Origin: Gammaproteobacteria bacterium
GTDB taxonomy: Bacteria; Pseudomonadota; Gammaproteobacteria; Natronospirales; REEB76
Direction: 5' to 3'
Length of the DNA: 43,018 bases
Assembly (NCBI GenBank): GCA_028871235.1
Contig: JAGWNO010000001.1
Location: 1 to 43,018, forward strand
Part shown: positions 713-1,470 of the stretch, in pieces
How positions within the stretch are numbered: position 1 is the first letter of the stretch
Layout of the letters: each line of letters begins with the position of its first letter
The notes under the pieces: model-generated
Database searches by the model: none
Seen by the model: only the letters and a program-made list of their open reading frames with translations
What the model was told of the DNA's origin: nothing
Position numbers and translations under genes: made by a program

Positions 713-1336
713 ATGCAGCTTGATTTCCGCCACGCCCGCTTCCTGAAGAGCGCCAATGCGCTGTCCGACCTGCCCGCCGACGATGGCCGCGAAGTGGCCT
801 TCGCCGGCCGTTCCAATGCCGGCAAGTCCAGCGCCCTGAACGCAATCAGCGGGGTCGGAGGGCTGGCACGGGTGAGCAAGACGCCGGGCCGCACCCAGCT
901 CATCAATTTCTTCACACTGGCCGGGCAATACCGCCTCGTGGATCTGCCGGGTTACGGCTATGCACGGGTCCCGCCGTCCATACGCCTGCACTGGGCACGG
1001 TTGATGGAGGACTACTTCACAGCCCGCGCCTCGCTTGCCGGCCTGGTATTGGTGATGGATATGCGCCACCCGCTGACCGATTTTGACCGGCAGATGCTGG
1101 CCTGGGTCATGCCCCTGGGGCGGCCGGTGCTGGCGCTGCTTACCAAGGCGGACAAATTGTCGCGCAGCGCACGCTTGAAGAGCTGTGGTGACGTGAAGAC
1201 GGTGCTTGCGGGTCAGGTCGAGGTGTTGGCCTTCTCGGCCATGTCCGCCGAGGGCGTGGAAGCGGCACGCACACTTCTGGAACACTGGTTGACGGATTCC
1301 GGCCGCAGCCCGAAAGAAAAAAACCCCGGTGTCTAA
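713..1336 (+). CDS. engB: Ribosome-biogenesis GTPase EngB/YihA
   Basis: Translation from the ATG at 713 is MQLDFRHARFLKSA...EVAFAGRSNAGKSSALNA (G1 P-loop) ...DLPGYGYA (G3) ...TKADK (G4). The 104-712 part of the 410-aa track ORF is antisense to cytochrome c4 and is not part of this gene. Confidence 0.9.
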   Translation: MQLDFRHARFLKSANALSDLPADDGREVAFAGRSNAGKSSALNAISGVGGLARVSKTPGRTQLINFFTLAGQYRLVDLPGYGYARVPPSIRLHWARLMEDYFTARASLAGLVLVMDMRHPLTDFDRQMLAWVMPLGRPVLALLTKADKLSRSARLKSCGDVKTVLAGQVEVLAFSAMSAEGVEAARTLLEHWLTDSGRSPKEKNPGV

Positions 1337-1354
1337 AGGGAGAAAACACCGGGG
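1317..1354 (-). terminator. Rho-independent terminator, minus-strand orientation, overlapping the engB stop codon
   Basis: A 9-bp GC-rich stem pairs CCCCGGTGT (1324-1332) with ACACCGGGG (1346-1354), with a 13-nt loop. On the minus strand the hairpin is followed by 7 U (plus-strand A-run 1317-1323). On the plus strand only UU follows the hairpin. Confidence 0.7.
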
Positions 1355-1436
1355 TTAACCGCTTCGCCCGGCTTGGGGAGACCGGGCGGCTGCCCCGCTC
1401 AGGGAGGTGAGCGGGTCGAGCACCATTGCGGCGCTC
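1317..1436 (-). ncRNA. Candidate Spot 42/ErsA-like small RNA in the polA-engB intergenic region (5' end approximate)
   Basis: A 257-bp gap separates convergent polA and engB. A sigmaE-like promoter lies at 1443-1470. The predicted ~120-nt transcript has three stem-loops: GTGAGCG/CGCTCAC, GCCCGG/CCGGGC, and the terminator hairpin followed by a U7 tract. It has the same position and orientation (downstream of and co-directional with polA) as spf in E. coli and ErsA in P. aeruginosa. Confidence 0.4.
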
Positions 1437-1442
1437 ACTGGT

Positions 1443-1470
1443 TTCGAGATTCATTCCAGATAAAAGTTCC
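1443..1470 (-). promoter_or_regulatory. SigmaE/AlgU-type promoter candidate (GGAACTT-N16-TCGAA)
   Basis: The minus strand reads GGAACTT (1470-1464), a 16-nt spacer, then TCGAA (1447-1443). This fits the extracytoplasmic-stress sigma consensus GAACTT-N16/17-TCnnA. Confidence 0.4.

Follow-up and report, generated by a model that had tools for sequence, protein, structure and literature searches.

The window analysed here is a 43,018-nucleotide stretch of gammaproteobacterial DNA (assembly GCA_028871235.1, contig JAGWNO010000001.1), in which two convergent genes enclose the gene of a small RNA (sRNA) that is the subject of this study. Upstream of the RNA, on the same minus strand, lies polA (1594-4338), which encodes DNA polymerase I with the DNA_pol_A and both exonuclease domains. 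Facing it on the plus strand is engB, also named yihA (713-1336), which encodes a GTPase of ribosome biogenesis and assembly (TIGR03598 YihA/YsxC, 213.8 bits). An earlier note, made from the letters of the sequence, had proposed a free-standing sRNA gene on the polA strand within the 257-bp gap between the two (1337-1593). The convergent layout and its coordinates were confirmed, and three findings settle that the RNA gene is real: homologues occupy the same genomic position, the stems covary and the promoter boxes are conserved.

The RNA, about 120 nt long, occupies positions 1317-1436 of the minus strand, an extent marked by its fold energy, by a match to the Rfam family anti-hemB, and by the homologues and covariation just mentioned. 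Its 5' end is predicted at 1436 or 1437, from the -10 box plus 6 nt and from the onset of conservation, and its 3' end is the end of a U7 tract. Between 1436 and 1317 it folds at -67.7 kcal/mol (z = -6.2), and none of 200 dinucleotide-preserving shuffles folds as well. The expectation of an RNA of this length starting some 7 nt after a promoter motif thus held, but that of three stem-loops was not borne out, since the fold shows four (SL0 to SL3).

The first of these, SL0 (1418-1436), is a 5' hairpin of the form GAGCGCC-GCAAU-GGUGCUC. It is followed by SL1 (1394-1415; seen in the fold and in the Rfam alignment), with the stem CCCGCUCA/UGAGCGGG and the loop CCUCCC (1407-1402). No other element of the family is as conserved as SL1, which forms the core of the anti-hemB consensus in Rfam (CCUCCCUGaGCGGG). 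SL2 (1365-1390) has a stem around GCCCGG/CCGGGC and the loop CUCCCCAA (1380-1373), and SL3 (1317-1356) is an intrinsic terminator with a GC-rich stem (1356-1322), the loop UCUCCCUUU (1343-1335) and the U7 tract (1323-1317). The C-rich loops CCUCCC, CUCCCCAA and UCUCCC are complementary to Shine-Dalgarno sequences. The prediction that the last hairpin and its U7 tract reach into the 3' end of engB was correct, while the minimum-energy fold extends its 9-bp stem to 13 bp. The final codons of engB, AAA AAC CCC GGT GTC TAA (K N P G V stop), also encode the 3' arm of SL3, and the sRNA overlaps the last 20 nt of engB.

Homologues and covariation

Homologues were collected in two ways: from 80 loci of species-representative genomes, fetched via EngB, and from a metagenome scan with a pattern of the two most conserved loop motifs, which fixes the SL1 and SL2 loop sequences and hit at least 120 contigs (123 pattern matches listed). 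The RNA was found in 10 of the 80 genomes and in more than 100 metagenome contigs. The genome scan gave no close relative: in the closest genome found (L001), EngB is only 65% identical, whereas 103 nt of the sRNA are 88% identical at the same position, and diverged copies lie 3' of engB in a Thiotrichaceae (L042) and a Chromatiales (L017) genome. A covariance model (R1) built from these three sequences and that of the window scores 33-132 bits on 95 sequences. Its matches among the genome loci include several unclassified Gammaproteobacteria, a Steroidobacter and a Spongiibacteraceae genome, and a weaker match in a Cellvibrionaceae locus, on the opposite strand, is doubtful. R1 gave no match in the Methylophilaceae, Halomonas and Halieaceae loci, which make up the majority of those fetched. 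In Methylophilaceae and Halomonas, a convergent polA was not detected beside engB. In Halieaceae (L008, L024, L038, L055, L061, L064, L069, L077) the convergent polA-engB gap is only 20-65 bp, which leaves no room for the RNA, and it was therefore presumably lost in that lineage.

Among the metagenome matches listed, the great majority show the complete RNA, and two (L158, L167) are chance matches in coding-like sequence. A convergent engB follows directly downstream in 89 of the 123, polA stands directly upstream on the same strand in 65, and both neighbours are present in 52. One contig (L097) carries two tandem copies of the family RNA, at 10759-10887 and 11015-11116.

Compensatory changes in the stems of relatives, which the earlier note had named as a check, are present. 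In a model-fitted alignment (A3) of 95 sequences, 91 of them distinct, 92% of cells hold standard pairs, a share that drops to 30-47% if the 3' partners are shifted by one to three columns. Changes on both sides occur in 29 of 32 base pairs, values that none of 500 shuffles reached, and all 7 pairs of SL0, all 7 of SL2 and all 10 of SL3 show compensatory changes. Because A3 is fitted to the model, the analysis was repeated with plain MAFFT and RNAalifold on 39 diverse sequences, which recovered SL1 to SL3 independently, with compensatory changes in 16 of 20 pairs. SL0 aligns poorly in MAFFT because its loop length varies, yet it covaries by eye (GAGCGCC/GGUGCUC, GAACACC/GGUGUUC, GAGCGCC/GACGCUC).

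The same alignment bears on whether the transcript might instead encode a small protein, comparable to SpfP of the Escherichia coli sRNA Spot 42, whose gene spfP is annotated inside spf. A 23-codon frame (MVLDPLTSLSGAAARSPQAGRSG) does start at an AUG in the SL0 loop, and it is present in the window and a few close relatives. However, an early ATG occurs in only 32 of 95 family members, the frames and their lengths differ, and frameshifts appear even within the closest clade. Indels are not multiples of three, substitutions track base-pairing rather than codon structure, and the 11 nt between the predicted 5' end and the AUG leave little room for a ribosome-binding site. As the reading frame is not conserved across the family, the small-protein reading was rejected, and we give it practically no chance.

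A conserved promoter of the sigma-E type

Upstream of the RNA, on the minus strand at 1443-1470, lies a motif of the type recognized by the envelope-stress sigma factors sigma-E and AlgU, consisting of the -35 box GGAACTT (1470-1464), a 16-nt spacer and the -10 box TCGAA (1447-1443). In E. coli, sigma-E binds a -35 element with this consensus, GGAACTT (PMC1540707). The motif had been pointed out in the earlier note and stands as described, with boxes that are conserved across distant relatives. By itself it is weak evidence, being only mildly unlikely by chance: with one mismatch allowed, the window holds one match where 0.17 are expected, and one or more matches turned up in 13 of 100 shuffles. 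It is the comparison with other genomes that carries the case.

Among the 112 distinct upstream regions listed, 91 have GAAC 55-78 nt before the CCUCCC loop, 76 of these at 59-63 nt. Of the 91, 69 have a spacer of 16 nt and 8 one of 17 nt, and the sequence of the spacer carries little information. In full, the profile reads G-GAAC-TT(tt), a low-information run (0.01-0.4 bit), a-TC-T-a/t-A, six low-information positions, and then GAGCGC, the start of SL0. Conserved boxes around a free spacer of fixed length are, as far as sequence comparison goes, the signature of a working promoter. Relatives that were found by the model and not by the pattern also carry the boxes, namely a Steroidobacter locus (L048, GGAACTT-N16-TCTGA) and loci L054 and L015. 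As an exception, a small clade has the variant GGAATTA...GTCTTA. A sigma-70-like site was not found in 1000-2000, and a CRP site was not searched for specifically.

In two loci (L089, L125) of a sub-clade that lacks the GGAAC box, the RNA gene is in addition inverted within the gap, so that it lies on the engB strand and points to polA; the missing box and the orientation together imply a different promoter and a local inversion.

Could the hairpins be only the structured 3' untranslated region (UTR) and terminator of polA, with no promoter or regulatory role of their own and with a fortuitous GGAACTT-N16-TCGAA? The polA-proximal part of the gap (1471-1593, minus strand) has no detected terminator of its own: no hairpin with a U-run behind it was found in 1437-1600, and the structure of that stretch is not unusual (z = -1.05). 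The terminator scan used does not detect hairpins with a loop longer than 8 nt, which is why it missed the sRNA terminator. The lack of a terminator in the polA-proximal part suggests that polA transcripts may run on into the sRNA terminator, which therefore probably also ends them. Many relatives, moreover, have promoter boxes that begin a few bases from the polA stop codon, and the weak significance of the motif within the window would likewise suit a mere 3' UTR. Against this, the -35 and -10 boxes are kept at a fixed distance while spacer and flanks vary, and the same RNA and boxes occur where the upstream gene is not polA but a divergent hemB. The conservation of the loop sequences far exceeds the needs of a terminator, and the Burkholderia member of the family is a discrete 105-nt transcript with a mapped start. 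We therefore regard a polA 3' UTR without further function as very improbable.

Relationship to the anti-hemB family

At the Rfam gathering scores no family matched anywhere in the window, and families appear only at an E-value threshold. The best match of the RNA is anti-hemB (RF02837; 45.0 bits, E = 2e-9, cut-off 49.5), followed by sX13 (RF02232; 37.0 bits, E = 1.3e-5, cut-off 50), both over the full model length. A Betaproteobacteria toxic small RNA model (RF02278) covers SL2 and the terminator (1317-1383, minus strand) at 26.4 bits with a cut-off of 50. All 20 relatives tested score best on anti-hemB as well, with 40-66 bits. Since those in the polA-engB slot lie on both sides of the cut-off (40-52 bits), while those of betaproteobacterial type score higher (61-66 bits), the RNA of the window belongs to a continuum of which Rfam covers the Burkholderia end only. 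A score just under the cut-off keeps it out of standard annotation.

The anti-hemB family, little studied so far, was first described as a motif in 2007 (PMC1950547), and its other names are ncS04, in Burkholderia cenocepacia, and 'Burkholderia RNA 7'. Like its members, the RNA of the window has the SL1 hairpin (CCCGCU..CCUCCCUGAGCGGG), in which CCCGC/GCGGG closes a CCUCCCUG loop; a second hairpin and a CCCCGG terminator that ends in a U-tail follow. It also shares the convergence with engB, and the boxes of its promoter recur as GGAACTT-N16-TCTTA in the betaproteobacterial-type metagenome relatives. It differs in having the additional SL0, which lies outside the 81-position Rfam model, and in its upstream gene, which is polA on the same strand, whereas in anti-hemB it is a divergent hemB. 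In the betaproteobacterial-type contigs L082, L096 and L165, hemB is divergent upstream, engB is convergent downstream, and cytochrome c genes follow. This arrangement matches the published position of ncS04, which in B. cenocepacia was described as '<- -> <-' between BCAL0264 and BCAL0265 (PMC4603805). ncS04 itself is a 105-nt transcript with a mapped start, is among the Northern-confirmed candidates, and co-purifies with Hfq (PMC5688073, PMC4603805).

Two further observations concern these neighbourhoods. In the window, a cytochrome c4 homologue (2-442, minus strand) lies beyond engB on the opposite strand, and an engB-cytochrome c neighbourhood is also found in the betaproteobacterial loci. 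In L096 (9382-9420), and also in L082 and L165, the start codon of the divergent hemB is no more than about 36 nt away from the -35 box of the sRNA. A hemB transcript with a longer 5' leader than this would run antisense to the sRNA, and this is probably the reason that the first description placed the motif on both strands ('hemB/anti-hemB').

In a 2026 preprint, anti-hemB is interpreted as regulating hemB by antisense, with a link to low salinity (bioRxiv 10.64898/2026.09.01.748597). For the locus studied here such a role is ruled out, as hemB is not present in the 43-kb window.

As for other RNAs with similar elements, the half that comprises SL2 and the terminator may have given rise, as paralogues, to the double-hairpin RNAs that Burkholderia carries in multiple copies (ncS03, ncS05, ncS27, ncS62). 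The alphaproteobacterial ar14 (loops CCUCCUCCC, cut-off 58.8) is weakly similar to two family loci, L198 (706-813) with 36 bits and L009 (4626-4731) with 24.8 bits, which may reflect convergence on anti-Shine-Dalgarno loops or a very distant kinship.

A second site in the window, at 31162-31240 on the minus strand, gives a weak match to the family model (22 bits, E = 0.004). It is placed between an alpha/beta-hydrolase gene (31464-32420, plus strand) and a 134-amino-acid open reading frame (ORF; 30705-31109, minus strand), and consists of a small hairpin, an unpaired CACCUCC, and a GC-rich terminator with the loop UACCCCCCUU and a U7 tail. Upstream of it, neither a sigma-70-like nor a sigma-E-like promoter was found. 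It could be a second small RNA with a C-rich loop, or a leader or attenuator of the 134-amino-acid ORF.

Comparison with sX13, ErsA and Spot 42

The sX13 RNA of Xanthomonas lies downstream of polA on the same strand (PMC3771888), as does the RNA of the window. With about 115 nt and three hairpins with C-rich (4C) loops, it has much the same build, and the CCCCAAG motif of the SL2 loop recurs in its consensus as the loop-2 motif UCCCCAAG (UCCCCAaG), at the place where the consensus of the Pseudomonas sRNA ErsA has CCCgCCCUAG. On the other hand, the match to the sX13 model stays under the cut-off, the stems are different, loop 1 of sX13 is AUCCCCUG in place of CCUCCCUG, and the downstream gene in Xanthomonas is a hypothetical protein instead of engB. 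The C-rich loops of sX13 act on G-rich mRNA motifs, for which specific targets and compensatory mutations in loop and mRNA have been demonstrated, and the RNA accumulates when cells are exposed to high salt or 37 C or grown in minimal medium (PMC3771888). A link between sX13 and sigma-E was not found in the literature searched, and the sX13 papers give no promoter.

In Pseudomonas aeruginosa, ErsA occupies the same slot between polA and engB in the same orientation and depends on sigma-22, an envelope-stress sigma factor (PMC8575079). The 3' half of its consensus likewise consists of two hairpins with C-rich loops; the entry to its terminator is UUgaaCCCCGg where the window has UUAACCCCGG, and its terminator loop is cCCCUCCCCAUA. 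The difference lies in the 5' half, which in the window forms SL0 and SL1 with its CCUCCC loop, while the first 33 consensus positions of ErsA are unpaired in the Rfam model. A U-rich unstructured domain II, between SL1 and SL2 of ErsA, is its predicted target-binding part, and the RNA acts in trans (PMC8575079). No such unstructured U-rich 5' region is found here. Calling the RNA ErsA-like, as the earlier note did, is thus justified for the slot, the promoter type and the 3' half, but not for the Rfam model (Pseudomon-1/ErsA, RF01719), which matches only the 3' part (model positions 34-107) at 16.8 bits (E = 0.7) against a cut-off of 50.

Some relatives come closer to ErsA. One gammaproteobacterial locus (L009) scores on both models, with 46.4 bits for anti-hemB and, over the full model length, 41.8 bits for ErsA, and L015 and L067 reach 31.1 and 30.3 bits on the ErsA model. 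A distant kinship with ErsA seems plausible on sequence grounds.

Two side observations concern the diversity of this locus. In L067 (4583-4705) and L078, both Pseudomonadales-like metagenome-assembled genomes (MAGs) with a polA-engB gap of about 215 bp, there is a short form in which TGAACTT-N16-GTCATA is followed by two hairpins with the C-rich loops UUUUCCCCCCAAAAG and CUCUCCCCUAA; in its build it seems to stand between the four-hairpin form and ErsA. In a Cellvibrio MAG (L056, 4630-5040), the 412-bp polA-engB gap holds tandem sigma-E-like promoters (TGAACTT-N16-GTCCTA and GGAACTT-N16-GTCTCA), and behind each of them lies a short RNA with unpaired C-rich stretches that ends in a terminator. 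It has the appearance of the same locus after duplication and divergence.

Spot 42, an RNA of Enterobacterales and Vibrionaceae, shares with the RNA of the window an identical gene order (polA> sRNA> <yihA/engB in the E. coli K-12 annotation), a similar size and a terminator. It is transcribed from a sigma-70 promoter repressed by cyclic AMP-CRP and has U-rich single-stranded seed regions, whereas the window has sigma-E-type boxes and C-rich loops as the presumed seeds. Its Rfam model (RF00021) has no match in 1250-1650 even at E <= 10, and the family model gives 13.4 bits on E. coli spf, which we take as similarity of architecture and terminator only. Of the comparison to Spot 42 drawn in the earlier note, the gene order on the polA strand therefore remains, and the sequence family and promoter type do not.

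Proposed function

We conclude that the gene most probably, at a rough 70%, encodes an independently transcribed, trans-acting sRNA of about 120 nt that is a gammaproteobacterial member of the anti-hemB family, related to sX13 and more distantly to ErsA. The most likely mode of action is that of a sigma-E-induced translational repressor. Upon its release, an envelope-stress extracytoplasmic function (ECF) sigma factor of the RpoE/AlgU type would direct RNA polymerase to GGAACTT-N16-TCGAA, and transcription would start at about 1436. The RNA folds, as structure prediction and covariation show, into a 5' hairpin, two hairpins presenting CCUCCC and CUCCCCAA, and a C-rich-loop terminator with its U7 tract. 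By analogy with sX13, the C-rich loops (CCUCCC, CUCCCC) would find G-rich or Shine-Dalgarno regions in several mRNAs and, by pairing with them, prevent the initiation of translation, so that less of a set of proteins would be made under envelope stress. A terminator of this kind, ending in U7, would lend itself to binding by Hfq, as ncS04 co-purifies with this protein.

Such a regulatory logic has precedent in the sigma-E-dependent sRNAs MicA, RybB, MicL and VrrA of enterobacteria and vibrios, through which the envelope-stress sigma factor gains a repressing arm by means of an sRNA that blocks translation, and whose targets are mRNAs of outer-membrane proteins. With this class the gene shares a promoter that matches the sigma-E consensus and is conserved among relatives. 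It shows no similarity to these four RNAs in sequence or structure, and where they use seeds at the 5' end or in single-stranded regions, those of the window RNA are presumed to be in hairpin loops.

Several points weigh against this interpretation. The RNA scores 4.5 bits under the anti-hemB cut-off, and its 5' end and sigma-E dependence are deduced from sequence. The promoter type is not universal, as the GGAAC box is absent from a sub-clade (L089, L124, L125, L131, L163, L194). The conservation of the loops is partly built in by the pattern-based choice of the metagenome sequences, though relatives recovered without a sequence pattern still have a C-rich loop in SL1. The role of Hfq is uncertain, as sX13 works without it (PMC3771888). 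In B. cenocepacia, ncS04 was unchanged in 7 of 7 conditions tested by quantitative PCR, osmotic stress and low pH included (PMC5688073), which does not suggest strong stress induction there; envelope stress was not among the conditions.

An alternative that follows from the gene layout is that the RNA acts mainly in cis on engB, with convergent transcription or antisense pairing at the 3' ends coupling engB to stress and the loops being secondary. Convergent engB is indeed the most constant neighbour (the 89 of 123 listed) and is kept when hemB replaces polA. By an in-frame scan for the first stop codon, the 3' end of the RNA overlaps the engB frame in 33 of 77 engB-convergent loci and lies within 0-30 nt of it in 26 others; in the window, the hairpin on the engB strand is followed by UUAACC and is not an engB terminator, so that engB transcripts could read antisense through the sRNA. 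However, the overlap is short (20 nt in the window) and inconstant among loci, from 57 nt of overlap to ends that lie more than 200 nt apart. Conservation is strongest in the loops and not in the overlapping terminator arm, and sX13 has a different downstream gene, yet keeps its C-rich loops and acts in trans, as does ErsA. A main role in cis is therefore unlikely, although the tight tail-to-tail packing makes an additional effect on engB a secondary possibility.

Another alternative is a decoy, in which the loops mimic the 3' end of 16S rRNA and titrate an RNA-binding protein, or soak up Shine-Dalgarno sequences globally. The SL1 loop and its 5' neighbour (ACCUCCCU) resemble the 16S anti-Shine-Dalgarno sequence, ACCUCCUUA, and each molecule has three C-rich loops. 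Furthermore, the related 'toxic small RNAs' of Betaproteobacteria, on whose model the window scores about 26 bits, inhibit the growth of E. coli when cloned (PMC5688073). The specific targets of sX13 and its compensatory mutations in loop and mRNA do not fit a global decoy, and the only protein partner known for any member is Hfq. We consider a decoy decidedly unlikely, and the trans-acting translational repressor remains our preferred reading.

Significance for the family

What was already known is the RNA family itself, to which the gene of the window is a slightly sub-threshold addition. What the comparison adds is the presence of the family in the polA-engB gap of many Gammaproteobacteria, the conserved sigma-E-type promoter of nearly all its members, and the intermediate sequences that bridge anti-hemB and ErsA. 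No report of the gammaproteobacterial branch, the sigma-E-type promoter or the bridge to ErsA was found in the searchable literature (searches for sX13/ErsA, sX13/RpoE and polA/engB/sRNA/RpoE). These results extend known kinds of RNA and are worth the attention of specialists, but they define no new kind. The genome gains one well-supported regulatory RNA gene, which is likely a member of its envelope-stress regulon.

On a wider scale, the ancestor of the Beta- and Gammaproteobacteria may have had a single sRNA gene, driven by sigma-E, with anti-Shine-Dalgarno loops, and tail-to-tail with engB. The anti-hemB/ncS04 RNAs of Burkholderiales, ErsA of Pseudomonas and sX13 of Xanthomonadaceae would be its descendants, and in the case of Spot 42 the slot might hold a replacement that has diverged greatly. 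We give this single origin somewhat less than an even chance. If true, it would put anti-hemB and sX13 in the sigma-E regulon, and it would run counter to the recent proposal in which antisense regulation of hemB is the chief role of anti-hemB. If the gammaproteobacterial branch, the promoter and the bridge to ErsA hold, envelope stress would become a testable physiological context for ncS04 in Burkholderia and for sX13 in the plant pathogen Xanthomonas, and the persistence of an sRNA gene at the same locus in such different bacteria would be explained.

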